Assembly: GCF_004010195.1 (NCBI RefSeq)
Contig: NC_057754.1
Location: 7,684,695-7,748,694 of the forward strand
Reading direction: 5' to 3'
DNA: 64,000 bases
DNA from: Chiloscyllium plagiosum
Taxonomy: Eukaryota
The position numbers and the translations under genes were made by a program. Each line of letters begins with the position of its first letter. Within the stretch, counting starts at the first letter, position 1. Positions 2,489-59,600 of the stretch are shown here, piece after piece. The notes below the pieces were generated by a model. That model saw nothing but the letters and a program-made list of their open reading frames with translations. It did not search any database and was not told the DNA's origin.

Positions 2489-2614
2489 TCCTGAAGAAGG
2501 GCTCATGCCCAAAACGTCGATTCTCCTGCTCCTTGGATGCTGCCTGACCTGCTGCGCTTTTCCAGCAACACATTTTCAGCTCTGATCTCCAGCATCTGCA
2601 GTCCTCACTTTCTC
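2489..2614 (+). mobile_element. Short hammerhead-family insertion (core mutated GAAA to AAAA)
   Basis: Same family as 15876-15988; imperfect 15-bp TSD at 2474-2488 and 2615-2629. Confidence 0.75.
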
Positions 2615-4879
2615 CTACCTCTTCTCCATACCCCTGCCCGCTCTTCCTGTTCAAATAATGATCCAATTCTCTCTGGGTAGCCTTAATCAAACCTGCCTCT
2701 CTCCCGTGCTCTCAGGTGGCATATTCCAGACTACCCACTGCCAGAAAAGATTTGCCCCTCTGTCGGTGTTGCCTTCCAATCATCTTAAATCTGTGCTCTC
2801 GTTCCATGAATGGGAACAGTTTCTCCCTTTCCACTCTGTTCAGACCCCTCGTGATTTTGAACACCTCAATCACACCTTCTTCAAAGGAGGACAGTCTTAA
2901 ATCTGCCCCCTCCCCTACCCCACCCCACCGATCCAGCTGGTTGAGGCACCTCATGTAGATATATTAAAGGTTGACTGGAGAATCATGAGGGAGAAAAGGA
3001 AAATTATGTTGATAGAGGGAAATGAGGGGGTAGGAGGAGATCTGTTTGATGCATAAACATCACTTGGGACGAATCTGTGCTCTAAAATACTGTTATGTAT
3101 ATTCCTTGAGATTGCACTGTCAGAAGACTGAGGTTGGTGGTAGTAATGGCAAGGTGATAAAGGTTTATGGCGGCGTAGATGTATGAGAATGGCCTCCATG
3201 GTTCAAGGAGCCACTTTCTGAAAGAGTTCAGGCAGGAGTGAGTGCTCCTGATGGCCAACATTAAGGGTGTTGGCCAGTCTCCTTCCTACAATGGTAAGGC
3301 ATTGCCTTTGTCACCTTGAAGAAACCCAGGGCAGAACAGTTAAAAACAGAACATAGAACATTCCAGCGCAATACAGGCCCTTCGGCCCTCGATGTTGTGC
3401 CAAACTGTGAAACCAATCTGAAGCCCATCTAACCTACACTGTTCCATTATCATCCATATGTTTATCCATTTAAATGCCCTTAAAGTTGGCGAGTATATTA
3501 CAGTTCCACTTTCTTACTACCTCTGACATCTGTCCTATAGCTATCGCCCCTCAAGTTAAAGAAAGCTATGTCCCCTAGTGCTAGCCATCACCATCTGAGG
3601 AAAAAGGCTGTCACTGTCCACCCTATCTAATCATCTTATATGTCTGTATTAAGTCATCTCTCAACCTTCTTCTCTCTAACGAAAACAGCCTCAAGTCCCT
3701 TAGCCTTTCCTCATAAGACCTTCCCTCCATACCAGGCAGCATCCTGGTAAATCTCTTCTGCAACCTTTCCAAAGCTTCTTACAATGCAGCGACCAGAACT
3801 GTACACAGTACTCCACACCGGAGTTTTATCCAGAGGTGATTTTGAAAGGCCCGGGCAGTGTTGTTCAGTGCCCTGTGAGTTGTGACTGCAGCAGTTGGGA
3901 TAGCTCAATGATCTTCTCCAAAGGATCATCTCAGATTCTGATCCTCTGTTGATGTGCGAGAAGGGGGTCGTAGAGTACTACAGCATACAAACAGGCCCTT
4001 CGGCCCACCACGTCCATGCCACACTGAGCTACACTAATCCCATTTAACTGCATAAATGGTCCATAGCTTCGCATGCCCTGGCATTTTTAGCACTACTTCA
4101 AATGTTGCAGGGTTACCTGCCTCCACCACCCTCTTGGGGAAGACGTTCCGGAACAAAAACAAATTGTTGGCAAAACAGAACCGGTCTGGCAACACCTGTG
4201 GGAAGAAAGTACAATTAACATTTGGAGTCCGGTGACTCTTCATCGGGGATATGTGTTAGCAGTGAGGGAGAAGTGGTATTTATGCTGAAGATGAAGTTGG
4301 GGAGAGGGGAGATTAGCAGATAAGTGGAGATGGAGACCAGGGGAGAGAGAGAGAGAGAGAGATGAAAGAGGTAGGTAAACAAGGAGATTATGGATAGCAG
4401 GCCCAGGGCAGTGGTAATAAGAGTTGGAGAGAATGGGTGGGTAAGCTGTACTAAAAGCAGAGCCGAGATTAGAGTGGTGCTGGAAAAACACAGCAGGTCA
4501 GGCAGCATCCGAGGAACAGGAAAATCGANNNNNNNNNNNNNNNNNNNNNNNNNNNNNNNNNNNNNNNNNNNNNNNNNNNNNNNNNNNNNNNNNNNNNNNN
4601 NNNNNNNNNNNNNNNNNNNNNNNNNNNNNNNNNNNNNNNNNNNNNNNNNNNNNNNNNNNNNNNNNNNNNNNNNGGGTTGAAGATGAGACGTTCTTCCTCC
4701 AGGCGTCAGGTGGTGAGGGAGTGGCGGTGGAGGAGGCCCAGGACCTGCACTAAAAACAGCCCATGTAATGTGATAATAGGCAGAAGAGTAGGTGAGAATG
4801 GGTGATTGTGCTAAAAGAAACCCATGTCATAAACAGTGTGTGGAGTGGGTAAAAAAAATCATTGAAGGATGGAATCAGG

Positions 4880-5135
4880 CTCTAAAATTGACACAAAAGC
4901 AGAACTTGCTGGAAAAGCTCAGTAGGTCTGGCAGCATCTGTGAAGAGAAATCAGAGTTAACGTTTCTGGTCCGATGATCCTTCCTTTGAAGGGTTTTGGG
5001 TCACTGAGGGCATCTTCTAGGAAGGATTATCGGACCCAAAACGTTAACTCTGATTTCTCTTCACAGATGCTGCCAGACCTGCTGAGCTTTTCCAGCCATT
5101 TCTATTTTTGTTTCTGATTTTCAGCATCCACAGCT
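4880..5135. mobile_element. Older fold-back hammerhead-family insertion
   Basis: Inverted arms (ctggaaaagctcag..gagttaacgttt / aaacgttaactc..ctgagctttttccag) with degenerate cores at the pivot. Confidence 0.65.
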
Positions 5136-5145
5136 CTTTATGTTT

Positions 5146-6100
5146 TTATCTCAAAGTATTGAACACGATGTTTATTCCTCGAGACGGTAGGCTCCCCCAG
5201 CAGAAAATGAGATGTTTGTGCTGAGGCTTGCTGGAATACTGCAGGAACACAGAGGTGTGTGGATGTGCGGGCAGAATGTAAATCTCTCGCAAAGCGGTCA
5301 CCCACTCTGTGTTTCGTCTCCCCTCAGTATAGAGGAGACCACATTGTGAGCAGCGAATGCAGTAGACTGGATTGGATGAAATGCAGGCAAAGTGCTGCTT
5401 CATCTGGAAGGTGTTTTGGGGCCTTGGATGGTGAGCTGGGAAGAGGTAGATGCGGTAACGTTGCACCTTTCATGATTGCACGGGAGGGTGCATGAGGTTG
5501 AGGGGAAGTGTTCGGAATGGAGGAGGAATAGACTGGAGCGTCCCGGAGGGAATGGTCCCTGCGGAATGCTGACGAGGGAGGGGAGTGGAATGTGCGTCTG
5601 GTCTTGGCGTCCTATTGGAGGTGACAGAAGTGGCGGCTTGGATGCGGAGGCTGGTGGAATGACACATAAGGACCGGGGAACACTATCATTGTTATGGGAG
5701 GGATGGGAAGTGGTGAGGGCTGAAGTTGGGGAGATGGGTCAACATGGCTGCGTGTCCTGTAACAGTAACAGGGAATCTTCGGTTGAGTAAAAAAGTGGAC
5801 ACTTCTGAGACCCCCCCTTGCAGAAGATGGAATTGTCAGAACAGATGTGACAGAGACGGAGAAACTGGGAGAATGGGATAGAATCCTTCCAGGACATGGT
5901 GTGAGGATGTATAGTCAATGTAGCTGTGGGAGTCGGTGGATTTGTGGTGGATGTTGGTGGCTAGTCAGAAATTAAAACAGGTGTCAAGGAAGGGAAGGGA
6001 GATGGACCAGATGGTGAGGACAGAGTGAAAATTGGAAGTTAAATTGCTAAATTTCTCCCCTTCAGAATGAGAGGGAAGCAGCACCAGTGATGTCATATAT
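5146..6100 (-). mobile_element. Penelope-like element fragment (RT C-terminus + GIY-YIG)
   Basis: FACISSNPVYCIRCSQCGLLY...HLIFCWGSLPSRGINIVF. Confidence 0.8.
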
Positions 6101-8676: not shown

Positions 8677-8677
8677 T

Positions 8678-8984: not shown

Positions 8985-11052
8985 TATTCTGTTACCCTAA
9001 TGCATTTTATATGGTATGGTCTGCCTGTACTGCATGCAAAACAAAGTTTTTCACTGTACCTAGGTACAGGTGACAATAATAAATCAGATCAAATCAAAAT
9101 CAAAGACATTCAGGATTCCCTGGATTTGCTACCCTTGCCCCTTAACAGGGAAAACATCCAGCACCAAACAGCACTGTTGTGAATCAGAAAAGGTCCAAGT
9201 TTGGCCAAACCATTGATGACCATCCTCAAAACCTGTTCGAATTGAGGTTGGAAGGGTGCGCAGTTCCCCTTTCTCTTCCCACTCTTCCAAGAGTCAGACC
9301 AAATTCTAAATTCAACCCATTTGGTATCAAGGTCAATTGTATCAGTCTTAGGATTGTATGAGGTTCAGTATTAAGAACAAATTCAGGTCTTTTTCAGTCA
9401 ACAATTATAACTAGTTTATTGCAAAATCAAAACTAGAGATGCAAAGAATATTGACAAACAGTTTGAATTGTGCAAATATATTTATACAGCCTTTTGAAAA
9501 TGAAGCTAACACACACACACACACAATAGTTGGGGGGGATAGTTAAAACTGTGCCAATTCCTAACTTTAAGGTACTTTGGCCAGGTAATATTTAGATTCA
9601 GCAAAGAGGATTGTCCGAAATGGAATTCCAAAGACGTGTCGTACAAAACTTGAGACATTAATTCTGCTTCGGTCTCCACAGATGCTAGCAGACTTGCTGA
9701 GTTTCTCCAGCCTTTTCTGTTTTTCTTTCAGATTTCCAGGATCCTCAGTGTTTTGCGAATTCCGTTTTATTTAAGTTTATCACCAGTTTTGCTTCTCGTG
9801 GTTGTTCAAGGAGCTCTGCCAACTGTACCACGTGATCTTTCCAGGACTTACAAAAGATCACTACGTCGTCCAAATAGACTGCACAGTTTGTTAACCCAGC
9901 CACAACTCTGTCATGAGTCTTTGGAATGTGGCAGGTGCGTTCTTCATTCCAAAGGGCATCACTTTAAACTGATTTAGCCCACTTGAGGTTACAAACGCAG
10001 AAATTTCTTTTGCCGTCTCTGATAAAGGTACCTGCCAGTAACCACGCAGTAAGTCCAACTTGGTGATGTAACTGGCTTGTCCGACTTTCTCAATACTGTC
10101 CTCCAATTTAGGAATTGGATATGAGTCCGATTTAGTACTGGCATTGACTTTCCGATAATCCACGCGGAATCGTTGAGTCTCATTTGATTTGGAAACAAAG
10201 ACGGTCAGCGAACTCCACTCACTCTGGCTCCATCTCCATCAGGACCTGTCTGGCTTTGAAAAGATTAAGCCCGATAGGGGTGTTGTTTTATCAGAGCAGT
10301 ATTCCCTATGTCTACTTCATGTACAATAGCATTAGTCCTCCCCATCTGATTCTTACATATGTCCTTATCCAACAATAACAAATCTTTCAACTGCTTTTCA
10401 CGCTCCTGAGACAAATAGTTTACTAACCTATCCCATTCCTCAAGGACGTCTTCATTTTTTAATCTATTTTGAGGCATCTCAAAATCCATATCAACTGGAT
10501 TTGATTCCTCACTCTGCGGGACAGTAACTAACACCTGTTTCTCCAGTCCTTTCTCTCTAGTATAGTATGGTTTCAATATGTTCACATTGACATACCTGAT
10601 ACCTGTTTTCTCAATCTGGCATCTTTACTAGATAGTTCACCTGACTCAACTTTTTCTCAATTTGATAGGGACCACTAAACCTGGCTTTGAAGGGATCTCC
10701 TACAGTACTAATACGTCATCCCCTCGGGAAAACATCTGAGTCTCAGAGCTTTTATCTGCTACCTGCTTCATTTTACACTGTGCCCTCTTTAGGTGCTGTT
10801 TGGCTAACTCACCTACTCGACTTAATCTCTCCCTCACCCCCGATACACAATGTAAATGTGAGATCTCTGACATTGGTCCCGTCAATTTTTCTTTAATTGC
10901 ACTTCATGCCCGAATATTAATTCAAAAGAGAGTGTACTAAGTAGATTCATTTGGGGCATCTCTAACGGCAAACAATACAAATGGGATGCCTTTATCCCCA
11001 TCATTCAGGTAATCCTGACTGCACGCTCTCAACATGGTCTTCAGGGTCTGAT

Positions 11053-11274
11053 TTGAAGTTGAAACTTTATTGCTGGAACAGCACAGCAGGTCAGGCAGTA
11101 TCCAGGGAACAGGAGATTCGACGTTTCGGGCACAGGCCCTTCTTCAGGCCTGAAGAAGGGCCTGTGCCCGAAACGTCGAATCTCCTGTTCCCTGGATGCT
11201 GCCTGACCTGCTGTGCTGTTCCAGCAATAAAGTTTCAACTTTGATCTCCAGCATCTGCAGACCTCACTTTCTCC
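11053..11274. mobile_element. Short fold-back Penelope-derived insertion with two opposed hammerhead cores
   Basis: Near-perfect ~95-bp inverted arms pivoting at cttcaggcctgaag; 15-bp TSD tcttcagggtctgat at 11038-11052 and 11275-11289; inserted in the gypsy integrase. Confidence 0.85.
11150..11177 (+). ncRNA. Minimal type I hammerhead ribozyme core (mirror copy at 11120-11147 on -)
   Basis: CTGAAGA-A-GGGC-ctgt-GCCC-GAAA-CGTC. Confidence 0.65.
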
Positions 11275-14162: not shown

Positions 14163-14656
14163 AACTGTTATGACCCGGGGCTAAACCCCTTTGCTAATTT
14201 AAAAACCAGCAACACAGAAAAGATTTATCCCGTGCAGTAATCTGTGAAAATCCGATAAGCCAAGAACTAGTTAAAGTAAAAATTAGCAACTTTATTTCTT
14301 AAAGTATAAGAGAAAATAATTAACTAACAACTATTTACAAGTCTTTCCTCAAACCTATCTTTTACCTTCCCCTTTGTGGGAGATTTGTTATAACCAAAGC
14401 AGCCATCTTGTCACATATTAAAAGGCTGGAATCCATTTTAAATCTCATATTAGTGACTGCTTGTTAAGTTTGTACATACCCAGGCCCAGTACAAGAGTTG
14501 GCAGGTCATGCTACAGTTGTACTGACCTTGCAGCTGTCCTAGAACCTGATAGTGACCTCTTTCCCAGCATGAGAATGTTCTTCTTTTACAAGAATCTGTT
14601 TTAATATTAACACTTGCTTATCAGCTATCAACTAGCACTATCTAGACACTATGTGA

Positions 14657-14912
14657 TTCGGAGATGCCGGTGTTGGACAGGGGTGTACAAAGTTAAAAAT
14701 CACAAAACACCAGGTTATAGTCCAACAGGTTTAATTGGAAGCACACTAGCTTTCGGAGCGACGCTCCTTCATCAGGTGATTGTGGAGGGCTCGATCGTGT
14801 GTTACGATCGAGCCCTCCACAATCACCTGATGAAGGAGCGTCGCTCCGAAAGCTAGTGTGCTTCCGATTAAACCTGTTGGACTATAACCTGGTGTTGTGT
14901 GATTTTTAACTT
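14657..14912. mobile_element. Short fold-back insertion, second hammerhead-bearing family
   Basis: ~110-bp inverted arms around cgatcgtgtgttacgatcg; 14-bp TSD tagacactatgtga at 14643-14656 and 14913-14926. Confidence 0.85.
14821..14869 (+). ncRNA. Type I hammerhead ribozyme with stem I
   Basis: aatcac-CTGATGA-A-GGAGC-gtc-GCTCC-GAAA-GCTA-gtg-[tgcttccg]-att; stem I = aat.cac/gtg..att with an internal loop; a mirror copy lies on the - strand. Confidence 0.7.
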
Positions 14913-15324
14913 TAGACACTATGTGACTGAGACTAGTGACTGAACAAAGTGTCCATTTACTCATTATACTATAATTAACTGTTTGCTAATTGTTAAATGA
15001 TTGTAACCAATATAATCACGCAACTCTCCGTATCTTGTTGGAGTGACTCCGCAGCCTTGTACCTCCAAAGCATTGGATTGTGTCATTGGCTTTCAAGGTT
15101 GTCAATATACTAAATCCAAATTTGATTGGAGTTTGGTATTTGTTTTGTGGTATACTTAAACTGATTGGCCCAATTCAAATCTGTTTCTGTCTCCAGGCAA
15201 CTAACTACCCCAGTAGCTGGACCACATGTTTACATCGTATCTTATTGAGAACGCTTGGTGCTGTCACTGCTAGCTTTTAACTCTCTTAAAGGTACAGTAC
15301 ACCTACATCTTCATGACAAATGAA

Positions 15325-16245
15325 AATCATCCTAATCTACTCAACCTCTCTTCATAACTAGTGCTCTCCATACCAATCAACATCTTAGTGAACCTCCTCT
15401 GCACCCTCTCCAAAGCATTCACATCCTTTTGGTAATGTGGCGACCAGAACTGTTCACAGTATTCCAAATGTGGCCAAACCAAAGTCTTATACAACTGTAA
15501 CATGACCTACCAGCTCTTGTACTCAATACCCCGTCCGATGAAGGAAAGTATGCCGTATGCCTTCTTGACCACTCTATTGACCTGCGTTGCCACCTTCAGG
15601 GAACAATGGACCTGAACTCACAAATCTCTCTGTACATCAATTTTCCCCAGGACTTTTCTATTTACTGTACAGTTCACTCTTGAATTGGGTCTTCCAAAAT
15701 TCCTCGCATTTGCCTGGATTGAACTCCATCTGCCATTTTTCTACCCAACTCTATCTATATTCTGCCATTTTTCTACCTAACTAATATCTATCTATATTCT
15801 GTTGTATTCTCTGATCATTCCCTTCCCTATCTGCTACTCCACCAATCTTAGTGTCATCTGCAAACGTGCCAATCAGGAAAGGTCTTCAGGACCTTTCCTG
15901 AAGAAGGGCTCATGCCCGAAACGTCGATTCTCCTGCTCCTTGGATGCTGCCTGACCTGCTGCGCTTTCCCAGCAACACGTTTTCAGCTCAAACGTGCCAA
16001 TCAAACCACTTATACCTTCCTCCAGATCATTTATGTATATCACAAATAGCAGTGGTCCCAAAACGGATCCCTGTGGAACACCACTGGTCACAGTTCTCCA
16101 TTTTGAGAAACTCCCTTCCACTACTACTTTCTGTCTCCTGTTGCCCAGCCAGTTCTCTATCCATCTAACTAGAACACCCTGGACCCCATGTGACTTCACT
16201 TTCTCCATCAGCCTACTATGGGGAATCCTATCAAACGCCTCATGG
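15325..16245 (-). mobile_element. CR1 RT fragment
   Basis: [46 protein letters not shown]. Confidence 0.9.
15876..15988 (+). mobile_element. Short hammerhead-bearing insertion in a CR1 fragment
   Basis: Core CTGAAGA-A-GGGC-tcat-GCCC-GAAA-CGTC at 15898-15925; 15-bp TSD caaacgtgccaatca at 15861-15875 and 15989-16003. Confidence 0.8.
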
Positions 16246-20796: not shown

Positions 20797-21025
20797 GTCG
20801 ATAAAGTGTGGAGCTGGAAAAAGCACAGCAAGATAAGAGGCATTAGAGGAGCAGGAGAGTTGACATTTCAGTTGAAGAGTTGACTCTTTGTCAGGACTGA
20901 TGAAGGATCTGACCTGAAATATCAACTCTCCTGCTCCTCCGATGCGTCTTGACTTGCTGTGCTTTTTCCAGCTCCACACTTTATCGACTCTGACTTGCCA
21001 GCATCTGCGGCCCTCACTATCTGCA
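20797..21025. mobile_element. Fold-back hammerhead-family insertion
   Basis: Inverted arms; degenerate CTGATGA..GAAA at the pivot; imperfect 16-bp TSD at 20781-20796 and 21026-21041. Confidence 0.7.
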
Positions 21026-23943: not shown

Positions 23944-24440
23944 NTCGTCGTGTTGTCATGGTCTGGCGATGGAGGAGTCCAAGGACCTGCATGTCCTTGG
24001 TGGAGTGGGAGGGGGAGTTGAAGTGTTGAGCCAAGGGGTGGTTGGGTTGGTTGGTGTGGGTGTCCCAGAGGTGTTCTCTGAAAACATTCCGCAAGTAGGT
24101 GGCCTGTCTCCCCAATGTAGAGGAGGCCACATCGAGTGCAGCGGATGCAATAAATGATGTGTGTGGAGGTGCAGGTGAATTGTTGCGGATATGGAAGGAT
24201 CCCTTGGGGCCTTGGAGGGAAGTAAGGGAGGAGGTGTGGGCGCAAGTTTTGCATTTCTTGCGGTTGCAGGGGAAGGTGCCGGGAGTTGAGGTTGGGTTGG
24301 GGGGGGGGGGGTGTGGACCTGATGAGGGAGTCACGGAGGAAGTGGTCTTTTCAGAACGCTGATAGGGGAGGGGAGGGAAATATATCCCTGGTGGTGGGGT
24401 CCGTTTGGAGGTGGCGGAAATGATGACGGATGATACGATG
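23944..24440 (-). mobile_element. Penelope-like GIY-YIG fragment
   Basis: PGTFPCNRKKCKTC; FTCTSTHIIYCIRCTRCGLLYIGETG; FREH..AQHFNSPSH. Confidence 0.85.
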
Positions 24441-26870: not shown

Positions 26871-29107
26871 AACTAGCTAGACAAGCAGCCTCAAGAGGGG
26901 AATGAATGGCCTCTTCCTATGTTGCTATATCAGCTGGGATGTTAAAGCAATCTCCCCATCAGTCTCATAATGGTTGAGTTGAAATTCCTGCTGTATCCAT
27001 CGCTAGAGGAGCAGCCAGATAGTCTAATCTCACTCTTCGGCCATTGCTGGTCTCTGCTCAGAAGCAGTCTTTAATGGATAAGGAACGATCCTCCGTTAGA
27101 ATATTTTCTCTTCCTTCCCACCTCACTATCTTGCTTCCTCTGCGTTGGCTGAGGATTTTCTGCCAATTGCTAATGGTGAGTTGCCACATACTTATACCCT
27201 GCACCTTGTAATGAGGGACAGAAATCCTCTAGAAGGATTTGCATCATGAAAGTGGCAGCATTGTGCTCAGTATCCCTGTGAGTTGCTTAACTTGGGCATG
27301 ACCCTACCCATTAAACGCACCGCAGAAACATTGGGCTGGTATTTACGAGCTTAAGGAGCCTTTCAGTGAGAGTTTCATTCTCCTGCACTCTCGCTCAACC
27401 TCTCTAGCCCAGAAAATGAACTATTTCAACGGTAGACTGTCATTCCTGCAGGTAGGAAGTTGTTCTTATAGATTTCAGAAATTTTATTTCTGATGTTTGA
27501 ACTCTGAATTGACTCATTTTTTTTCCAGCCTCATTTCTCCTTGGTTTAAGGAGAGAGAAAATGGTGTCTCTATAAATCACTGAGGTTACAGTTGCCCTGC
27601 TCAATGTACTTTGAGCACCCTGCAGGCTTTTCAAGCTAAAGTTCAAAATTAATAATTCCAACTAAATGTTGAAAATTACATAGTTCACAAATATGGAATT
27701 AAATTCACTCCTTAGTATCCAAAATCCAATTGATTTGGATATTGAACGAACACCTTTGATTAGTTTAGTATTCTGGATTTTTTTCCAATCAACTTTAATC
27801 ATCTACTGTGGTGAGAATTGAACCCTTGCCCCCAGGACACTACTGGGGATTTCTTGAAGCACTAGTCCAGTGACATTACTATTAAGGCACTACCACCCCC
27901 CCCCCTCCACTATACAGTCCCTATTCCACTAGCTTGTCTTGTTGTTTAACTCTTTCCTGACTGTTCACAAGTTTTGTGTCATCTGCGAAGTTTAAGATCG
28001 TACATTAAGGTTTCTTGATCTACACGGACAGCAGAGGTTGTAGTACTGACCCCTGGAGAACCCTACTGCTGCACACCTTCTGAAAGACAACTGTTTCCCA
28101 CTGCTGTCTCTTTCCCTGTCACTCAGTCAACTTTGAATCCACACTGCGGCTGTCCCATTTATCCCCTGGGCTTTGACTTTGAGGTGTGCCCTTTGTAAGT
28201 CTATTTGGGACAAATTTAACCTCATCAACCCTCTCTGTTCCTTTGTCAGAAAACTCAGTCAAGTCTGCTGGACATTGGTTAGGCACACTTTGGGAATACT
28301 GTATTCGAATCTGGTCGCCCTGCTACAGGAAAGATGTTGTGAAACTTGAAAGGGTGCAGAAAACATTTACAAGGATGTTGCCGGGGTTTGAGCTATAGGG
28401 GGGGAGGCTGAGTAGGCTGGGGCTGTTTTCTCCATTTGCTGATCTGTGTTCAACAGCAGTCTTGACTAGATAAGGAATATTTTCTCTTCCTTCACGCCCT
28501 GCCATCTTGCTTTCTCTGGAGCACGAGGCTGAGGAGGTGAACTTCATAAAATCATGAGGGGCATGGAAACGGTGAACAGCTAAGGTCTTTTTTTCCCAGG
28601 GTAGGGGAGTCCAAAATTAGAGAGCACAGAGTCATAAAGATGTACAGCATGGAAACAGACCCTTCAGTCCAACCTGTCCATGCCGACCAGATATCCCAAC
28701 CCAATCTCGTCCCACCTGCCAGCACCGGGCTCATATCCCTCCAAACCCTTCCTATTCATATACCCATCCAAATGCCTCTTAAATGGTGCAATTGTACCAG
28801 CCTCCACCATTTCCTCTGGCAGCTCATTCCATACACGCACCACCCTCTGTGTGAAACAGTTGCCCCGTAGGTCTCTTTTATATCTTTCCCCTCTCACCCT
28901 AAACCTATGCCCTCTAGTTCTGGACTCCCTGACTCCAGGGAAAAGACCTTTGCCTATTTACCCTATCCATGCCCCTCATAATTTTGTAAAACATCTATAA
29001 GGTCTCCCCTCAGCCTCCGACGCTCCAGAGAAGGGACCTGAGGAGCAACTTTTTCTCGCAGAGGGTGGTGCTTGTCTGGAATGAGCTGCCAAAGGAAGTG
29101 GTGGAGT

Positions 29108-31405
29108 CAAAAAGTGTGGTGCTGGAAAAGCACAGCAAGTTAGGAGGCATCCAAGGTAAGGGGTGATGGTGATAGGTTGGAGCAGCTAGGTGGGAAGGAA
29201 GATGGACAGGTAGGACAGGTGAAGAGTGCGGTGCCGACTTGAAGGGGTTGGATCGGGGAATGAGGAAACTGGTGAAATCGACATTGATGTCGTGTGGTTG
29301 GAAGTTCCCAAGGCAGAAGATGAGGTGTTCTTCCTCCAGGCATCAGATGGCTATGATTGGCGATGGAGGAGGCCGAGGACTTGCATGTCCTTGGCGCAGT
29401 GGGAGGGGGAGTTGAAGTGGTCAGCAACAGGATGGTGGGGTTGTTTGGTGTGTCTATCCTGGAGATGTTCTCTGAAACATTCCGCACGTTGGCGTCCTGT
29501 CTCCCCAATGTAGATCAGACCACATCGAGAGCAACGGACACAGTAGATGAGGTGTTTGGATGTGCAGGAAAATCTCTGCCGAATGTGGAAGGATCCTTTG
29601 GGGCCTTGGATGGAGGTGGGGAGGAGGTGTAGGTGCAGGTTTTACACCACTTGCAGTGGCAAGGCAAGGGGCCGGGTGAGGACGGTGGGTTGGTGGGGGG
29701 GCATCGGTGGGTTGGTGGGGGGCATGGATCTAATGAGGGAGTTGTGGAGGGAATAGTCTCTGCGGAATGCTGAAAGGGGTGGAGAGGGAAATATGTCTCT
29801 GGTGGTGGGGTCTGACTGTAGATGGTGGAGGATGATGCATTGCGCCTGGAGATTGGTGGGGTGGAAGGTGAGGACTAGGGGCCTTCTATCCTTGTTGCGG
29901 TTGGAGGGGTAGGGTTCAAGGGCGGTGATGCAGGAAGTGGAGGAGATGCGCTGGAGGGCACTGTTGACCACATGGGGGGTGAACTTGCGGTCCTTATAGG
30001 AGGAGGCCATCTGGGATATTCTGGAGTGGAATTGCTCCTCCTGGGAGCAGAGGCGGTGGAGGCAGAGGAATTGGGAGTAAGGGATCGCGTTCCTACAGGA
30101 GGAGGGGTGGGAGGAGGTGTAGTCCCGGCAGCTGTGGAAGTCGGTGAGTTTTAAGTAGATGTCCGTGCTGAGTCTCCACTGGAAATGGAGACAGAGAGGT
30201 TCAGGAAGGAGAGGGAGATGTCCAAGATGGTCCAAGTGAACTTGAGGTCAGGGTGGATGGTGTTCGTGAAGTCGATGAACTGTTCGACCTCCTCATGGGA
30301 GCACGAGATGACATCAATACAGTCATCAATGAAGCAGAGGAAAAGGTAGGGAATAGAGCCAGTGTAACTATGGAAGATGGACTGTTCCATGTACTAAACG
30401 AAGAGGCAGGCAGAGCTGGGGCCCATGCAGGTGTCCATGGCTACCCCTCCTTCTGCAGGAAATGGAAGGACTCGAAGGAGAAATTGTTACGGGTGAGGAC
30501 CAGTTCAGCTAATTGAATGAGTATGTCAGTGGAAGGGTACTGGTTGGGTCGGCGGGAGAGGAAGAAACGGAGGGCTTGGAGGCCTTCATCTTGGCAGATG
30601 GACGTGTACAGGGTCTGGATGTCCATGGTGAAGATAAGGCAGCGGGGGCTGAGAAACCGAGTCATGGTGGACATGGAGGGTGTGGGCGGTATTCTGAATG
30701 TATGTGGGGAGATCCTGGCCCAAGGGGGACAGGACGGTGTCAAGGTATGAGGAGATACGGTTCAGTGGGGCAGAAGCAGATGGACACAATGGGTCGACTG
30801 GGGCATTTTGGGTAAGAGATAGAGCTGGGTGGTGTGGGGTTCCTGGACTGTGAGCGAAGAGGCTGTGGTTGGGAGATCCCCTGAGGCAAAGTGGTTGTGG
30901 ATGGTCTGGGACTGATAGTTTGGTGATGGGAGGTGAGGTTGTGGTCGAAGAGGTGCAATCCAGGTAGCTGTGGGAGTCGGTGGGTTTGAAGCAGTTGTCC
31001 GTGTTGAGTTGGTCGCTGGAAATGGTCGGAGTAGGAGGAGGTGTCCATGGGTTGGCGCCTGGCTTCAGCCGTGTATAAGTCGTTGCGCTAAACTACCACT
31101 GGGCCTCCACCCTTGTCTGCTGATTTGATGGTGAGGTTAGGGTTGGAGCGGAGGGAGTTGGGCTGCACATTGCGAGGGTGAGAGGTTGGAGTGATTGAGA
31201 GGGGTGGACAGGTTGAGGTGGTCAATGTCACGGTGGCAGTTGGAGATGAAGAGATCGAGGGTGGGTAACAGATCGGCATGGGGTGCCCAAGTGGATGGGA
31301 TACATTGGAGGCAAGCGAAGGGGGTTCTCGAAGGATAGGTGGGAGTCCTGATGGAAAAGGTAAGCATGGAGGTGGATGCAACGGAAGAAAAATGCGATGT
31401 CACAA
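29108..31405 (-). mobile_element. Penelope-like element (RT + GIY-YIG), decayed
   Basis: Fragments RPIVS, FTMDIQTLYTSI, VLTRNNFSF..FLQ, FIDDCI, AIPYSQFL and PLVLTFHP, plus the C-terminal endonuclease region; nested inside a CR1 3' end. Confidence 0.88.
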
Positions 31406-31574
31406 CGTGTGTGGAAGCTGGTACAACTGCAACATTTAAAATGCATCTGGATGGGTATATGAATGGGAAGGTTTCAGAGAGAAAAGGGCCCAAATGCTGG
31501 CAAATGGGACTAGATTAATTTCGGATATCTGGTCGGCATGGTTGAGTTGAACCGAAGTGTCTGTTTCTGTATGG

Positions 31575-31801
31575 AAGTGGGTACTGCAGATGCTGGAGAT
31601 TGGAGTCATGATTAGAGTGGTGCTGGAAAAGCACACCAGGTCAGGCAGCATCTGAGGAGCAGGAAAATCGACATTTCGGGCAAAAGCCCTTGATCAGGAT
31701 GAAGGCCTGATGAAGGGCTTTTGCCCGAAATGTCGATTTTCCTGCTCCTCAGATGATGCCTGACCTGCTGTGCTTTTCCAGCACCACTCTAATCTTGACT
31801 C
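31575..31801. mobile_element. Fold-back hammerhead-family insertion
   Basis: Inverted arms; CTGATGA-A-GGGC-tttt-GCCC-GAAA-TGTC at 31707-31734. Confidence 0.8.
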
Positions 31802-33341
31802 TGTGTCTGTTGCTGTGCTGTACATCTCTATAGCTGCACCTGCCTTTAACCTCATCGATCCTCTCTGTTCCTTTGTCAGAAAACTCAGTCATGTCGCTGT
31901 TTTGCCTTCAACTAATCTGACCCAGCTTTCCCGTTGGAACCAAGCGAACAGTTAATTATGTCCCGGCTTATCAAGGACTCCTCCAACCACGGAAGTTAAA
32001 AGTCCTGCCCTTTTGACCGGTGTGCTTGTCCCTCACCAGCCCTCTAACAGTTCTCCAAGTCCTCTCACATGGCCCTCCTATGTATAGAGGATGGGAAGGT
32101 TAAGGTCAGTGTCTCTGCCAATCTCAAGGTGACTGCCATCCAGGCAGACTTTAGATCCCTGCTCTTAACTAATTGTAAACCCCATCCCGTTTCTCAAACG
32201 CCACAAGTTGGTTGGTGTTTACACCCTTGGTCAAGGCAGTTGCAAAGTGCACATTGAGTGCTTCAGATGTGCTGTGTGCCTCTACCTATCAGGTCCTTCA
32301 TCTGTTTCCCTCTTCAACTGCAGCCCTTCCCAGTACCACAGTTTTACTATGTAACTAAAACGTGTGCTTATGAACAAGCTTGTGTTGGATATGTTTGCTC
32401 TTTCCAACCATCATAATGAAGGAATACTAAATTAACACGGTGAAGGCTTGCCCAAGATCACCCTGGACCGTAAACTGGTCTCAGCGTTTGTTTCTTACAG
32501 AATCCAACTTTAGTTCTGCAGATGTGTTTCTGTTCTTTGTTCCTGATTCTAAGCAGGCAGTCCATTCTGGGAATGTATTGCAGAGAGGTATTTCTGAGAA
32601 TTTTAAAAGGCGACGGTCATTTCGAACCAACCTTCCACATCTTGGGATTTACTCGAGGGATTCGATTTTCTCTGTCACATTCTTCCGGGCAAAGATCGCT
32701 TTCTGCTGTCAGTGTTAAAATGGAGAGATTCTCCCCCCCCCAGCCACCCCAAGCTGGACAGCGCCCAAGAGGACTTTCTTAAAGAAAATGTAACAGCAGG
32801 GAGGTAGTTGCTATTAATCAGTGTAGCAAAGGGATGAATAATCATTTCTGATCGTGCCAGTTGGTTTTGCCTGGTTTAACCCCAAATGTGATACGGTACA
32901 TACCACGCTATGACCTCCCCCACCCCCTGTCCTGACTTGGAAATATATCCGTCACTGTTGCTGCTTCAAAATCCTGGAATTCCCTCCCTCATAGAGTCCT
33001 GCAAATAGCCCATCAAAAACAAATTCCCAACTCTTCTAATCCCATTTTGCAGCACTTGGCTCATAGTTCTGTAGGCCTTGTTCTTCGGGCTAAAAGGGTG
33101 GAAGGGAATGTTGAGTGACCAGTCTTGATCATACAGACTGGTGAAGCTAATAGAACTATACACAGACTGAAGGGACTGTACACATCTATGACTCTGAGAA
33201 AATGGCTCACCATCACCTCATCCAGGGCAATTATGGGATGGGCATATTCTGGATCTAGCCGGCAGCATTGACCTCCCATGAAAGAATATGTTTTTTAAAA
33301 AAGATAGGATAAAAGCTCCTATGGCTTCCGATCAGGAGGTG

Positions 33342-43470: not shown

Positions 43471-43969
43471 GGAAGTTTCCATCCTTTGCATTGGATCTTA
43501 ATCTGGACCCCAAAGTGGCCCTCTCACAGGCAGAAGAGACTATTCAATAAAGGGGTGTGGTCTCATGGAGGGGTGAGGGAGGGGTTAGTATGCATCATGG
43601 CACCTTGGGGTTTAAACGTGCCCCTACATTAGCAGCGTAATTTGAGGATTTATTGCTGACCGTGGACAGCGCTGAATGAAAATGAGACTTGAATATGTTA
43701 CTGAGGGGATACCAGGCTCCAATCTGCTGTGGGTTGAGTGGTGGAGGTGAGTAGTGCAAGGTCTTTCAAAAGCCTCTTGATATTGGGGGAGCACAGGGCT
43801 GTGGCCGCTGTCAGATCAGCACCCAGTGCACAGCCGATCAGAAGCTGGGATTCCTGCCTCAGGGAGCGCTTTGGGTCAGGACTGGGTGTATGTTTGCAGA
43901 GGGCAGGAGGGAGGGGGAACGGTTCCTCTGACCCTACGTTCACGAACGTTTTTCCCCTTGCACGCGCAG

Positions 43970-44074
43970 GATTACGACGGTGATCATAAAAAACTGAGAC
44001 GAAGGGAAAAGAACAGGATTGCAGCTCAAAAAAGCAGACAGAAACAGACACAGAGAGCAGACAGTTTGCACCAG
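43970..44074 (+). CDS. BATF2: BATF-family bZIP, coding exon 2 (basic region)
   Basis: Acceptor tttccccttgcacgcgcag|, donor CAG|gtaagc; 105 nt; encodes DYDGDHKKLRRREKNRIAAQKSRQKQTQRADSLHQ, the BATF basic-region signature (EKNRIAAQKSRQ..T..AD.LH). Confidence 0.92.
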
Positions 44075-44204
44075 GTAAGCAGTGATGCCCTGATAGAATC
44101 CCTAGTGTGGAAGCAGGCCATTCGAGTCAACAGTGATCCTCTGAAGAACATCCCTACCAGATCCAGCCGCCCCCAGCCTATCCCTGTAACCCTGCATTTC
44201 CCAG

Positions 44205-45690: not shown

Positions 45691-46070
45691 GCCTCCTCCA
45701 TTGCCACAACGAACTACACCGCAAATTGGAAGAACAACAGCTCATCGTCCACCTGGGCAGCCTACACCCCGGAGGACTCAACATTGAATTCTCCAATTTC
45801 AAATAACCTCCCTTCCTGTCCACTGACTCCCCAGCCCCTCCCCCTCCCCCTCCACTCCTCCCTGCCACCAACTGGATTAATTCATCCCATTGACCAACCA
45901 GGTCATACCCTCTACCTGTCTTCACCCATCCCCACTTCACCACCCTGCCCCCTTTATCTGCAGCCCTCCCTACACTCACCCCCAGTCCTGATGAAGGGTT
46001 ACACCTGAAATGTCGACCTCTCCACCTCCTGGTGCTGCCTGGCTTGCTGTGTTCTTCCAGCCTCCTGTTT
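45691..46070 (+). mobile_element. Penelope 3' end with pseudo-LTR carrying a hammerhead motif
   Basis: RKLEEQQLIVHLGSLHPGGLNIEFSNFK*, then a C-rich UTR, then gtc-CTGATGA-A-GGGT-tac-ACCT-GAAA-TGTC-gac at 45985-46017. Confidence 0.8.
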
Positions 46071-46565
46071 GCTGTTTACTTTCAGTAACTGGTGTTCAAG
46101 GACACTCAGGTCTTGCTGCACCTCCCCTTCTCTCCCAATCTATCGCCTTTTAGATAATAATTAGCCTTCCTGTTTTTGTACCAAAGTTGATAACCTCACA
46201 TTGCACTTCAAATAACCTCTCTTCCTGTCCACTGACTCCCCATTGCCCATTTGGTCACTTGAATGGTGCCTGTGTGCGCTGCACCTAATCTCTGAATCTG
46301 TGACTGTTTTACTTTCAGTAAGAATTGAATTTGCAAAGGGGGATCTGTTACTTCTGTCTCTGGGTTACTGCTCCTTCCAGATAGACTTTAACAATGCGAA
46401 GTTTGGACACGAGGTGTGCGTGAGATTAGGCTTGTAAGGATGTGGTTAGTGACAAAAGTGTTGTAGCTGTGAGCGAGCATGTGAATCTCATCCTCTTGGC
46501 CCTGATTCGACTGAGAGAGCAGCCTTTCACTGGCGTGCTTTTGAGGGCAAAGCAGCGAATGGAGT

Positions 46566-46870: not shown

Positions 46871-47499
46871 ACCCACATTTTCCCCACCGGTGTCCTCATG
46901 GGCTCGAGAGTGATGGGTAAAAGTCGGGGTATGGTCGTGCTCCCCTGTGATACTGCCTCCCACCTCCAACGTCCAGTCGAATACCCCACCGGGGCGAAGG
47001 GGTTTGTGAGGACACTTTGGAACAGGCAGAAGGGCAGGGTCGGGTGCCCGAACATTCTTCCTATCAAAATATTCAAGAATCATCAAGGAGCCAGGCGAGG
47101 GATTTTAAATGGTGTCATTCTGTCCAAAGAGCACAGGAACGAACATAGGATTTAGGAGCCAGAGTAGGCCCTTCAGCCCCTTGGTGAAAGTGAGGACTGC
47201 AGATGCTGAAGATGAGAGTCAAGATTCGAGTGATGCTGGAAAAGCACAGCAGGTCATTCCCGATGAAGGGCTCCTGCCCTGAAATGTCGATTTTCCCGCT
47301 CCCTCGGATGCTGCCTGACCTGCCCCTTGAGCTGCCCTGGGCATTGAGACAGCATTCAGGAGCACTGAGATTCCCTTGCCAACTAACTGTTAAGAGTTAA
47401 CCAAAGGCGCATTACAGCAGAAGCAATAGGAACAGGATCAGGCCATTTGGTCCCTCGAGTCTCTCCTCCAATTCAATAGACAATAGAGGAGGCCTTTGA

Positions 47500-50886: not shown

Positions 50887-50967
50887 CTTGCTCAGACAAG
50901 AGCTGCCTTGTTTGGTTGCTAGGGTCCACCCCTAGCAACCAAACAAGGCAGCTCTTGTCTGAGCAAG
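50887..50967. repeat. Perfect inverted repeat, 38-bp arms, 5-nt loop
   Basis: 50887-50924 is the exact reverse complement of 50930-50967; loop tccac. Confidence 0.95.
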
Positions 50968-52386: not shown

Positions 52387-53204
52387 GATTAGAAAACAGA
52401 CTCAGACTGTGGACTTTCCCACATGACACATTTGAATTGAGTGGGCGCTGGAGGGGAGGTGAGATGGTCTCCCAATAGCAACTCACTCTGGTGGGTTCTG
52501 AGGCCCCACTTGAGGGTGCGGTTGTATTTTTTTTGAGGGGATGTGCTTGGGGGGTGGGGGGGGGAAGTGGGGAAACCCACTGGCTTAACATGCTTTTAAA
52601 AATAAAGCCCCGTCGAAGGGAACATCGAAACAACTAAACATTAATTTTAGCTGGGGGCGAGGGAAGGGAAATTTTAAATAGTTGTTGGGGGGGGGAAGAT
52701 AACCCGCAGAAAGTGGGTCACTGGCAAAGAGCTCACGGTGGTGTGCGAGGGGAAAACTTCTCGCAAGCGGTTAAAACGGAGGAGGTGAGCCATCAGTGCT
52801 CTATCGCACAGGTACCTTTACCCAAGAGAGAGCTGCGTCAGAGTTAGTCCTTTCTCCCTGACCACGCGTGTACTCGCAGCTGGAGGATTGATACCTTTTC
52901 ACCAAGCAGACACCCACCCGCATCCTGTTTTGATCGGCTTTCCAGTAAATGACCTTTGTGAGATTTTTTTTTTTGGGGTGCTTTAGCCGACGTGACGTTC
53001 AGACATCCTGATGTCTGAAATTCCATTCTCTCGAACAGGATGTTTTTTTTTTCAAACCTGTGCTTTTTTTTTACTACGAGAGAGAGAGAGAGAGTACAAT
53101 TGTCCTCGCAAAGTCTCCACAGGCCCATTTTGTGTTCCACCAAACTCCCTCCACCCAGCCCATCATCTCAACCTCATCACCATGTCCTTTTCTCCCCTCT
53201 TAAG

Positions 53205-53370
53205 AATCACACAACACCAGGATACAGTCCAACAGGTTTGATTGGAGGCACTAGCTTTCAGAGCGCTGCTCCTTCATCAGGTGATTGAAAGCTAGGTGAG
53301 CTTCCAGTCAAACCTGTTGGACTTTAACCTGGTGTTGTGTGAATTTTAAGTTTGTCCACCCCTGTCCAAA
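53205..53370. mobile_element. Fold-back copy of the second hammerhead family (another copy at ~58252-58372)
   Basis: aatcacacaacaccagg...cctggtgttgtgtga arms; minus-strand core CTGATGA-A-GGAGC-agc-GCTCT-GAAA-GCTA at 53252-53280. Confidence 0.75.
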
Positions 53371-53494
53371 TCATGACTTTTCTCCCCTTGACTTTATCCA
53401 TCAGTCCTCCGAGGAACGTGTCTGTTGTATTCACATCTGCGGTTGATATTTCCACACTCGCCCACTCTCTGGTGAAGGAGGTTTCTCCCATGGA

Positions 53495-54293: not shown

Positions 54294-54805
54294 CTTCCTT
54301 CGATTATTTATGGCTCTGCATTCCTTTGAGAAGGAAACCTACTTTGTCCCTGGGATTTGGATGCCGTTGGTTAGACCAGTATTTACTGTCTGGGCTGTTG
54401 CAACCATCAGACAACCATTGGCAAGTTCCCATTTAACACCTGCCCTTATCCCTGCTATAAACTTTGAATCCCCTAACAAAAACCTCCAGCTTAATAGCCC
54501 TATCTCTGCCAACTTCAGAGATGCAGAGATCACCCCTCTGAGAGGAAAACGGCTCCTCTTGATAGATTTCCGTGTGTTCATGTTCTAACCCTCACCGAAA
54601 TCTTGTTGTATTCCTCGTTCGTCTACACTATTCCAAAGCTGCAAAGCAATAAATGATATTTTTAAAACGGGTGCAAGTGGGTACTGCAGGTGCTGGAGAT
54701 TGGAGTCAAGATGAGAGTGGTGCTGGAAAAGCACAGCAGGTCAGGCAGGGTCCGAGTGCACGAGAATCGATGTTTCGGGCAAAATTTGATCCAACCCACT
54801 CTATC

Positions 54806-56699: not shown

Positions 56700-59600
56700 C
56701 TGTGTCCAGGGTGCAGGGATGGATTGTATGGCTGCCAAACTGGCTGATGACACAAAGATATGTAAGTTGTGAAAGGGACATTAAGGGGGCTATAAAACAA
56801 GAGAGACTGGCTAAGTATGTGAGCAAAGATCTGGAAAATGGTGTCCAATGTGACAGCAAGTATTTATGTGATCAAAATGCTGAGAGATTGCAGAGCTTTG
56901 AGATGCAGAGAGATCTGGGTGTCCTCATGCACAAATTACAAAAGGCTAGCGTACAGGCACAGCAGGGATTTAGGAAATTTAATAGAATGCATGGTTTATC
57001 GTGAGAGGAATTGAATACAAAAGTAGGGAGGTTATGCTTCAGGTCTGCAGGGCACTGGTTGGACTCCATCTGGAATACTGTGTACTGTATTCATCTCTTC
57101 TCATTCAAAGGAAGATGGAAATGTGTTCAAAGCAACTCAGAGAGGGTTTGTTAAATTAATAGAACATAGAACAGTGCAGCACAGGACTGGGACCTTTGGC
57201 CCACTATGTTGTGCCAAACATAGACTACAACAGCGCAGTACAGGCCGTTCGCCCCTCGATGTTGCGCTGACCTGTGAAATCAATCTGAAGCTCATCTAGC
57301 CTACACTATTTCCATTCTTGTCCATTTACCTATCCAATGACCATTTAAATGCCCTTAAAGTCGGTGAGTCCACTACTGTTGCAGGCAGGGCATTCCATGC
57401 CCCCTACTTCTCCCCGAGTAAAGAAACTAGCTCTGACATCTGTACTATATCTATCACCCCTCAATTTAAAGCTATGTCCGCTCTTGCTAGCCATCGCCAT
57501 CCAAGGAAAAAGGCTCTCACTGTCCAATGTGATGCCAAATTAAACTAATCCCTTGTGTCTGCCCATGGTTCACATTAATCTGTTCTTTGCATATTCATTC
57601 CCTTCTGTAAAAATTGCTTAAACACCCCAATCATATCTGCCTCAACACCACCCCTAGCAGCATGTTCTAGACTTCTACCACCCTCTGTATAAAAAACATG
57701 CCCCTCACATCTCCTTTGAACCTCCCCCCCCCACCACCCACCTTAAATGCATGCCATATAATTTCAGACATTTCAACTCTGGGAAAAAGATTCCGATCAT
57801 CAACCTCATCTATGCATCTCATAATTTTATAGACTTCTATTACGTCTCCCCTCAGTCTCCACCTCTCCAGAGAAAACAACCTGAGTTTTTCTAGCTTCAG
57901 CTTACAGTCCATACGCTTTGATCCAGGCAGCATCCTGGTAATTGTCTTCTGCGCCCTCTCCCAGGCCTCCACATCCTTCCTGTGATGTGGCGGCCAGAAT
58001 CGAATGCGATGATAATACCTGAGTTGTTTTATGAGGAAAGGCTGGACAGGCTGGGCTTGCCTCCACTGGAGTTTGGACGACTAAGCGGTGACTTGCTTGA
58101 AAGATGTGGAGAGAATGCTTCCTGTCATAGAGAGAATTGAGAATGAGGCGCCAATCTTCCAAATGAAGGGGTCAGCCATTTGAGACACTGATGAGGCGAG
58201 AGGGTCAGGAGTCACAGAGCGTCAAGAATCTTTGGAGTCCTCTTCCTTAAAAGTTTAAAAATCACAACGCACCAGGTTACCGTCCAACAGGTTTATTTGG
58301 AAGCACTAGCTTTCAGAGCGCTGCTCCATCATCAGGTTGTGTGATTTTTAAACTTTGCGCACCCCAGTCCAAACCATTCCTAAAAAGGCAGTGGAAGCAG
58401 AGTCTTTGAATATTTTTACAGCAGATGCCGAGTAAGCAATGAGGGGGAGTGGGATGGCGAAGTTGAGGTGGCAGTCCGATCAGCCATGGTTTTATGAAAT
58501 GTACAAGCCAGCTGGAGGGCTAAATGTGCTACTGCTCCTTGTCTGTATGTTCGATAAGATGACCTCTCAATTTGCCTTTCTAATCACTTGCTGGACCTGC
58601 ACACTAACCTTTTGGGTTTCATGTACCAAGAGCATTCAGAGCTCCCGTACCGCAGTGTTGTGCAATCTCTCCCCACTTAAAGTGTTTGATGCTTTTTAAA
58701 AAATTCATCCTGTTAAATTGAACAAGATTGCACTTTCCCATTTTATAGTCCTGCTGCCAATTTTATTGTGGTGAATGGAGGGGAACAGGTGGATGTAGTA
58801 TACTTGGATTTCCAGAAGGTGTTTGATAAGATGCCACATAAAAGACTCACCCCTAAGATAAGAATGCATGGAGTAGAGGGGAATGTACTAGCGTGGATAG
58901 AGGACTGGTTAATCAATAGAAAGCAGAGAGTTGGGATAAATGGGTGTTTCTCTGGTTGGAAATAAGTGGTGAGCGGGGTGTCAAGGGGCCGGTGTGGACC
59001 CACAACTGTTCCTGATATATATAAATGCTTTGGAAGAGGAGACTGAGTGTAACGTATCCAAGTTTGCTGATGACACTTTATTGAGTGGAAAGGCAAACTG
59101 TGCAGGAGATGCGGAGGGTCTGCAGAGAGATTTAGATGCAGTGTGAGCGAGCAAGGGTCTGGCAGGTGGAGCACAATGTTGGTAAATGTGAGGTTATTCA
59201 CTTTGGAAGTAAAAATAGTAGGTCAGAGTATTATTTAGGGAGAAAGTGAGGTCTGCAGATGCTGGAGATCAGAGCTGAAAATGTGTTGCTGGAACTGCGC
59301 AGCAGGTCAGGCAGCATCCAAGGAACAGGAGAATCGACGTTTCGGGCATAAGCCCTGTTCCAGCAACACATTTTCAGCAGAGTATTATTTAAATGGTGAA
59401 AGACTGCAGCATGCTGTTGTGCAGCAGGACTTAGGAGAGCTCGTACATGAATCACTAAAATTTGATTTGCAGGTACAACAGGTGATCAGCAAGGCAAACG
59501 GAATATTAGCTTTCATTGCTAGAGGGATTGAATTTAAGAGCAGGGAGGTTCTGCTGCGATTGTACCTGGAGTATTGTGTGGAGTTCTAGTCTCCTTTCTT

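Follow-up and report, generated by a model that had tools for sequence, protein, structure and literature searches.

Minimal hammerhead ribozyme motifs in short head-to-head insertions, probably derived from Penelope-like elements, in Chiloscyllium plagiosum

A 64,000-nucleotide stretch of the Chiloscyllium plagiosum genome (NCBI RefSeq assembly GCF_004010195.1, contig NC_057754.1, positions 7,684,695 to 7,748,694 of the forward strand; hereafter the window, numbered from its first letter) carries many copies of a hammerhead-ribozyme motif, which raises the question of what the short elements around the motif are, how they were copied and whether ribozyme cleavage had a part in it. An original prediction, made from the letters alone, assigned them to short derivatives of Penelope-like elements (PLEs) and took the ribozymes to act as dimers. 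In our view the motifs are likely to be minimal hammerheads of type I from the 3' ends of PLEs, their pseudo-long terminal repeats (pLTRs), and the short insertions, or stubs, are likely to have arisen by target-primed copying of uncleaved RNA. The fold, the extra A, the palindromic stem III and the dimer idea are already published and not new, and as a ribozyme finding the locus is ordinary; its value lies in the insertion record. Head-to-head insertions that turn at the ribozyme and are flanked by target duplications are the main architecture of the window, and neither they nor a polyadenylation site described below figured in the original prediction.

Hammerhead cores and their probable parent elements

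The window was scanned with a descriptor made of CTGANGA, an optional extra base, a stem II of at least 4 bp, GAAA and NN-T-H. Nine full cores were found, whereas 200 dinucleotide shuffles yielded 0.015 on average and never more than 1, which refutes a chance origin of the motif. The nine comprise the seven main cores of the original prediction, all present at the positions and on the strands it gave, together with 14775(-) and 58335(-); the latter had been listed as degenerate, and while the copies on that degenerate list are indeed related, the two arms at 4957-5047 lack the CUGANGA box. Throughout, C3 of the core is numbered +1 and upstream bases are negative, the predicted cut falling after +27 to +29 depending on the family. 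With profile hidden Markov models 26 related arms were found: six belong to family B and 20 to families A, C and D. We grouped them into 17 insertions, about one stub per 4 kb. That all this reflects chance matches or assembly artefacts is a negligible possibility: the assembly does contain N gaps and palindromes are prone to misassembly, but the shuffle expectation is far below the count, the inserts lie between target-site duplications (TSDs), their two arms differ from each other by 1-14%, and the family occurs in the sequencing runs of several studies.

All nine cores have a single base between A9 and stem II (A in eight, T in one). The predicted extra A is thus there, yet it is not new, since the consensus of Cervera & de la Peña 2014 (PMC4209133; here and below, statements on cited papers refer to the accessible part of their text) already has a base between 9 and 10.1, G10.1-C11.1 and a palindromic 15.2-16.2; the inference of the original prediction therefore coincides with a published consensus. 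Position pair 10.1-11.1 is G-C at six of the nine sites and G-U, through CpG decay, at three. Stem II, said to vary while staying paired, is paired at every site, with the qualification that GGGT/ACCT and one GGAGC stem close with G-U; the GAGTC/GACTC copy (C3 4246, minus) has its stem II, but it carries U4>C and G12>C and lacks stem I. Stem III is the expected loopless palindrome, ACGT or AGCT, at seven sites and a CpG-decayed ATGT at the other two, 31707 and 45988. For stem I the claim of varying pairs holds in part: 3 bp are formed at four sites (14775, 14827, 45988 and 53280; families B and D), 2 bp at two and 1 bp at three, in the last case because an inversion junction took away the 5' strand, and in family A the stem is gone at junctions or reduced to 2 bp. 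Only the four sites with a 3-bp stem I keep the core and stems I-III, and core changes are found in five further listed copies outside the nine sites.

No hammerhead was among the 17 Rfam matches to the window at E up to 10, the best being sub-threshold matches of microRNA hairpins on palindromes. A covariance model, R1, recovered 10 sites of families A and D with E no higher than 0.005 and missed families B and C; it is no independent test, because its source loci had been found with the family A pattern. Used without stem I, this pattern matched at least 120 metagenome contig stretches and nothing in viral contigs. Among the matches listed, stem I positions 1-3 are Watson-Crick in 68, 70 and 72 of 85 distinct matches, and pairing by class reaches 34 of 54 positions, against 17.6 in shuffles (0 of 10,000 reach it). 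From the 33 stem I types 24 were picked by hand and aligned, with stem II fixed by the pattern; the covariation score of this alignment is 0.382 against 0.163 (0 of 500 shuffles reach it) and is biased upward, because the nine types left out include unpaired or junction ones. Two measures counting pairs or pair types did not exceed the shuffles (280 and 305 of 500).

The parent elements are seen in coding remnants. The closest relatives of the window's retroelement open reading frame (ORF) are shark and ray proteins with 59-68% identity (Chiloscyllium, Rhincodon, Stegostoma, Hypanus); seven of the eight served as tblastn queries and located PLE remnants at 4679-4750, 5149-6072, 23945-24440, 29259-31422 and 45693-45818. 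For the short PLE fragments (proteins 1-6 and 11) Pfam returned 0 families, although tblastn with the shark relatives recognised them, and a PLE ORF piece had no match in phage records. A Cx2-5CxxC linker between reverse transcriptase (RT) and endonuclease is present in the window frame 23018-24448 and in the relatives P0003 and P0008; this linker marks Neptune and Nematis PLEs (PMC8557442), and families A and D, judged by sequence, appear to go with Neptune-type ORFs. The hammerhead lies downstream of a GIY-YIG ORF, directly in family D and across an N gap in family A2. The core at 45988, placed by the original prediction immediately after the ORF end, in fact begins 181 nt beyond the stop codon; its attribution to the minimal type I hammerheads of PLE ends is nevertheless upheld, both by this copy and by the metagenome, where 32 loci among the 120 matches listed have a PLE protein match and in 22 of the 32 the motif follows a PLE ORF end on its own strand after 84-125 nt. 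A predicted zebra-shark protein, P0004, continues past the GIY-YIG end and through the 3' untranslated region (UTR); about 120 codons further on it enters the hammerhead motif.

Some points weigh against assigning all copies to PLE hammerheads of the dimeric kind. Compensatory changes separate four to five families within the window, and a covariation argument resting on these has too few families for a formal test. Family B adjoins no ORF in the window, and for this reason its PLE origin is deduced from architecture. The dimeric fold has -17.7 kcal/mol against a cofold minimum of -32.7 in family B, and -2.4 against -16.1 kcal/mol in family D. Stem III cannot close in a monomer, and the dimer is therefore the only canonical fold; to this extent a dimer-requiring ribozyme was rightly predicted, but nearest-neighbour energies do not favour the dimer. 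The energies agree with reported low or protein-assisted activity and lend no support to spontaneous dimers: in PMC4209133 monomers gave no cleavage and dimers low cleavage, and the review PMC6765202 sets out the dimer model with reference to Lünse et al. 2016. To judge from published work, cleavage by the hammerhead of the parent element is probably slow, dimeric and protein-assisted. For most genomic stubs the dimeric fold is out of reach; most window copies have lost stem I or core bases or lie inside long hairpins.

Short insertions with inverted arms

Ten insertions of 113-256 bp are bounded by direct repeats of 10-16 bp with 0-2 mismatches (Table 1). Eight of these TSDs score at least 10, a value reached by 4 of 290 random window pairs, and two score 8, reached by 18 of 290. 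Two head-to-head arms are present in eight of the ten, as well as in the 4879 insertion, which has no TSD, and in all nine two-armed insertions exactly one arm carries a tail of about 30 nt. The marks of endonuclease-positive PLE insertions are thus found together: 5' truncation, an inverted copy, a one-sided 30-40-nt tail and a TSD. In DNA run X11 the 3' ends fall at +116 (829 contigs), +89 (253) and +85 (296), and both 3' end classes recur in four of five metagenome families. Nearly all window copies are probably short abortive insertions, and most of them are probably dead.

We infer a two-nick route for these insertions. A PLE protein would have nicked both target strands 10-16 bp apart, the distance being given by the TSDs. 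Each nick would then have primed internal reverse transcription, one at a distal site and the other about 30 nt nearer the ribozyme, and the two priming sites would account for the observed pair of one tailed and one untailed arm, by the chemistry known from the anole element PAc. The template was RNA uncut by the hammerhead, for the arms pass through the cut site without any of them beginning there; no window arm begins at +30, and cleaved RNA is therefore rejected as the template. Copying stops 1-6 nt upstream of the core, and the two complementary DNA (cDNA) ends would finally have been joined by microhomology or fold-back into the palindromes whose junctions are now seen.

A different origin, in which the stubs form an independent non-autonomous family resembling short interspersed elements, miniature inverted-repeat transposable elements or retrozymes, copied whole and with hammerheads that process its RNA, seems improbable. 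It would suit the very high density (17 insertions per 64 kb, and 44,059 X11 contigs that align to one family B arm), the uniform size with TSDs and the tandem retrozymes reported from one chondrichthyan genome (10.64898/2026.07.22.740005). However, the junctions differ from copy to copy, so that the palindrome must have been made anew at each insertion. Moreover, no head-to-tail tandem was seen in the window, where all close pairs are inverted, no arm begins at the cut site, and the five inserts with long arms form extended hairpins on either strand (-87 to -215 kcal/mol), in which the ribozyme is buried. Palindromes as copied units are thus disfavoured. A short master RNA transcribed from a solo pLTR would be compatible with target-primed copying as the best explanation.

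With the minimal hammerheads of metazoan PLE pLTRs (PMC4209133) the window copies share the type I core, the extra base, G10.1-C11.1, the palindromic 15.2-16.2, the absence of loop III, many solo copies and dual motifs on opposite strands. They differ in a stem I of just 3 bp with a stem II of 4-5 bp, and in the spacing of opposite-strand pairs, often 0-50 nt here against 100-700 there; the accessible text of that paper makes no mention of a fixed 5' boundary, a poly(A) site or sharks. With described PLE insertion units (Arkhipova et al. 2013, PMC3846280; Craig et al. 2021, PMC8557442) they share head-to-head inverted arms, TSDs, junction palindromes and a 30-40-nt tail at one end only, whereas in the window the whole insert is 113-256 bp, has no ORF and turns at the 5' edge of the ribozyme. 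The window data are fitted by priming at two sites of a sense RNA; the proposal of Arkhipova et al. was self-priming on an antisense template.

A mechanistic parallel is PAc, a PLE of the Poseidon type from Anolis (Frangieh et al. 2024, PMC11167929), with which the copies share a pair of internal RT start sites that set the tail, extension of both target strands, an uncleaved RNA template and the absence of RNA-seq ends at the cut. Uncleaved RNA is the main substrate of PAc and its cleavage is protein-assisted. It differs in that its ORF starts inside the ribozyme, while the window remnants carry the Neptune/Nematis linker, and the terms palindrome, polyadenylation and transcription start are absent from the accessible main text. 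The palindrome at 4879-5137 lies a few bases from the stop codon of another PLE ORF remnant (5126-5149), a location that recalls PAc cutting close to its own ORF-pLTR junction. Non-LTR retrozymes (Li, Clavereau & Pollet 2026, 10.64898/2026.07.22.740005) are likewise short, non-coding and PLE-derived with a type I hammerhead, but they are head-to-tail tandems of at least two consecutive ribozyme units, whereas the window copies are head-to-head or solo. In the literature, mostly open-access and without Repbase, Dfam or supplements, no account was found of shark PLE hammerheads, nor, in the same scope, of a truncation boundary at the ribozyme edge or a poly(A) site behind the ribozyme; the accessible parts of PMC6155905, PMC5753468 and PMC8969392 hold nothing to the contrary.

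The upstream boundary and the junctions

In eight of the ten TSD-bounded insertions copying reached no farther than -1 to -6; in one it reached -23 and in one +8. Under memoryless truncation, on the most favourable assumptions, this has P ~1e-10, or ~1e-8 with five long copies counted as misses; both values use a 6-nt window picked after the data had been seen, and the count omits three insertions without TSD, starting at about +6, +13 and +23. Nine strand-change joints are listed in public runs (five in RNA run X22, four in DNA run X11), a count that excludes 11 joints with intervening letters. Their far end lies within -9 to +9 in seven of the nine (P ~0.001 against a uniform distribution) and within -6 to +1 in four (P ~0.008).

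As to the cause of the boundary, the leading candidate is that the RNA starts there, although we put this at a little short of an even chance. Several observations weigh against an RNA 5' end. Across five metagenome families, copying ended within 7 nt of the core in just 2 of 87 cases, so that the boundary is not general; a further two metagenome contigs break off exactly at C3, perhaps because assembly broke at a palindrome. No pile-up of RNA starts at -1 to -6 is listed in run X22, although that run is a 3'-primed library. In Drosophila virilis transcription starts 46 nt before a 75-nt intron that ends at helix I (PMC2377424, PMC4209133); with a start site that far upstream of the ribozyme, the idea would have to be lineage-specific. 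Metagenome contigs L046, L072 and L036 end at C3 or one base earlier, possibly as breaks at perfect palindromes.

The boundary could instead mark a point where reverse transcription of a longer RNA is blocked, whether by the pyrimidine tract, by bound protein or by the new cDNA folding back on itself; we regard this as unlikely but as the most serious competitor. Long copies at 45988, 4246 and 29156 pass the boundary, as does the insertion reaching -23, and short scrambled or duplicated pieces of the kind left by slipping occur at the junctions 15876, 20871-20897 and 31699-31706; the lack of listed X22 starts at the boundary also speaks for it. The stop, however, follows copying of the entire ribozyme and does not fall on entry into it. 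Fold-back through the stem I mirror is rejected: it predicts -3/+33 junctions, which are found at no window junction and in none of the nine listed joints, the nearest being -3/+39. With just 14 G among its 181 nt, the family D UTR is unlikely to form a strong local hairpin.

We also rejected the idea that, as in D. virilis, helix I adjoins a splice acceptor, because an AG at -3 is present only in family D. There, the pyrimidine tract ends in CAG at 45985-45987, 3 nt before the core, and the location of this CAG matches the end of the D. virilis intron relative to helix I; families A, B and C have no AG at this position. At the joints themselves, the junction TCAGG-CCTGA recurs in two or three families and, speculatively, would follow from two cDNA ends that each gained one C and then annealed. 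The TSD at 11038-11052 contains TCTTCAGG, the same 8 bases as the central junction of its insertion, by chance or by target choice.

RNA reads, polyadenylation and cleavage

Run X22 consists of single-cell poly(A) RNA, of which about 2% was sampled; its first mate is presumably a barcode plus oligo-dT, as is typical of such libraries. The 2,598 X22 records aligned to 14657-14798 include 965 with T-runs as loose ends, 526 of them before 14715 and 439 before 14718, and first-mate depth rises from about 370 to about 1,500 at this site. The two T-run classes fit a single site at +59/+60, the first overlapping two templated T and the second ending in a variant base. Poly(A) is thus added 30-31 nt past the predicted cut at 14747. 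The family B element has no A-run there, and the poly(A) positions are not among the six X11 DNA loose ends listed. The signal, ATTAAA, is changed to AATAAA by a common variant (39% of X11 depth; 295 of 1,475 X22 reads). Only 110 X22 reads are 99% alike to the 14657 copy, and the reads may derive from any family B copy and include PCR duplicates.

This signal lies in the same place in three of five family B arms and 49 nt past the cut in the 11150 family, and is absent from the remaining arms checked, those of families A1, A2 and D included. A general poly(A) signal behind the ribozyme is therefore rejected, given its absence in A1, A2 and D and its presence in 13 of the 122 metagenome matches listed. 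At position -12 (14787), 304 RNA reads leave the family B arm with a common upstream sequence, and come either from one highly expressed locus or from another subfamily.

Depth is steady across the cut, at 1,539 (14747-51), 1,350 (14742-46) and 1,499 (14737-41), the dip at 14742-46 coinciding with a 2-nt deletion variant. Family B poly(A) RNA thus runs uncleaved through the predicted cut. No pile-up of RNA starts or ends is listed at that site in X22, a run whose reads do not measure cleavage, because the 30-nt product would be under-sampled.

These reads also bear on the proposal that individual genomic copies are active, host-relevant ribozymes that cut passing transcripts, for example removing a poly(A) tail added 30 nt downstream. 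The four copies that retain core and stems I-III, and polyadenylation of family B RNA just past the cut, speak for it, and yet we hold it to be highly improbable: poly(A) reads cross the cut without a drop in depth, 14775 and 14827 sit within a 116-bp hairpin, solo copies lack a tandem partner, G12 is hit by CpG decay in about 10% of family B depth, and published monomers do not cleave (PMC4209133).

A fuller but doubtful extension of target-primed copying puts the start of the transcript at the hammerhead's 5' edge and, for family B, its polyadenylation 30 nt past the cut, so that the ribozyme would lie in an LTR-like, terminally redundant R region. The 3' UTR would then correspond to U3, the stretch from ribozyme to poly(A) site to R, and +60 to the tail to U5. 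Target-primed copying from the U5 of the 5' copy would run off the RNA end and give a strong-stop cDNA of 90-120 nt, whose jump to the 3' copy of R, perhaps aided by hammerhead dimerisation via helix III, would rebuild the pLTR; a failed jump would leave palindromic stubs. The sharp boundary, the two RT start sites and the mapped poly(A) site make such a strand-transfer scheme testable. Regeneration of the pLTR by PLEs is called unexplained in Schostak et al. 2008, and the role of the PLE hammerhead unclear in Craig et al. 2021 (PMC8557442). If the scheme is true, host transcripts would receive poly(A) sites from tens of thousands of family B stubs; altogether, much hairpin RNA and many poly(A) sites in shark transcripts may come from the stubs.

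Table 1. Insertions and element pieces in the window (arm ends relative to C3 = +1; a point in the strand column as recorded for features without a single strand).
Feature	Coordinates	Strand	Core, arms and other details	TSD
Family A1 single-arm stub, tailed	2488..2614	+	C3 2491, G12>A; 5' end -2 to -4	probable, 2474-2487 / 2615-2628, 2 mismatches in 14
Family C 3' end	4131..4259	-	decayed core (C3 4246), below long pyrimidine-rich region	
PLE ORF-end fragment (4750-4679), N gap, family A2 3' piece (4528-4453)	4453..4750	-		
Family C-like head-to-head insertion	4879..5137	.	arms 87% complementary, both from ~+6; 33-nt spacer; right arm tailed	not found
Decayed PLE ORF remnant, RT thumb to GIY-YIG end	5149..6072	-		
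Old C-like tailed stub	9618..9749	+	core lost	none convincing
Perfect head-to-head insertion	11053..11274	.	centre 11148/11149; both arms from -1; right arm tailed; cores 11147(-), 11150(+)	15 bp, 11038-11052 / 11275-11289
Family B head-to-head insertion	14657..14912	.	both arms from -23; 5-nt spacer; left arm tailed; intact cores 14775(-), 14827(+)	14 bp, 14643-14656 / 14913-14926
Family B poly(A) signal and addition site	14716..14735	-	ATTAAA +41 to +46; addition at +59/+60	
Family A1 untailed arm	15876..15988	+	from ~-3, behind short scrambled fold-back	15 bp
Family D head-to-head insertion	20797..21025	.	right arm tailed, to ~-1; left from ~+20	16 bp, 2 mismatches
PLE linker (Cx4CxxC) and GIY-YIG remnant	23945..24440	-	3' end within N gap	
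Decayed 5'-truncated Neptune-type PLE, RT to GIY-YIG	29104..31422	-	frameshifted, ~2.3 kb; internal deletion at 3' end removes exactly the hammerhead region	
Family A2 head-to-head insertion	31571..31802	.	both arms from -1; 7-nt duplicated slip; left arm tailed; cores 31697(-) (G8>C), 31707(+)	14 bp
GIY-YIG ORF end, 181-nt pyrimidine-rich 3' UTR, family D hammerhead	45693..46090	+	stop 45806; C3 45988; predicted cut after 46014; untailed end	
Family A2 inversion, almost no overlap	47184..47319	.	tailed arm stops ~+62; opposite arm +64 to -5; core U4>C	10 bp (weak)
Family B head-to-head insertion	53199..53376	.	left arm to -6 (core 53280 minus); right tailed arm from +21	12 bp
Family A2 tailed arm	54675..54784	-	from ~+13; partner arm not found	not found
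Family B insertion	58254..58376	.	left arm to -2 (core 58335 minus); short tailed right arm from ~+66	11 bp (weak)
Family A1 insertion	59238..59377	.	tailed arm from +8; short right arm from ~+70	14 bp

Beyond these features, a perfect palindrome with 38-nt arms and a 5-nt spacer occupies 50887-50967; it has no hammerhead, no TSD was found for it, and it has no second copy in the window. The palindrome at 11053-11274 sits within a decayed LTR-retrotransposon-like region, 9891-13700 (-), with an RVT_1 match, which we take to be of the Gypsy type. Host sequence is represented by a bZIP-domain exon at 43985-44078 (+), presumably BATF-like, and by an exon of a PP2A B56 subunit at 62480-62680 (-), and a long tandem array of a short unit extends over 42700-43550, partly within an N gap.

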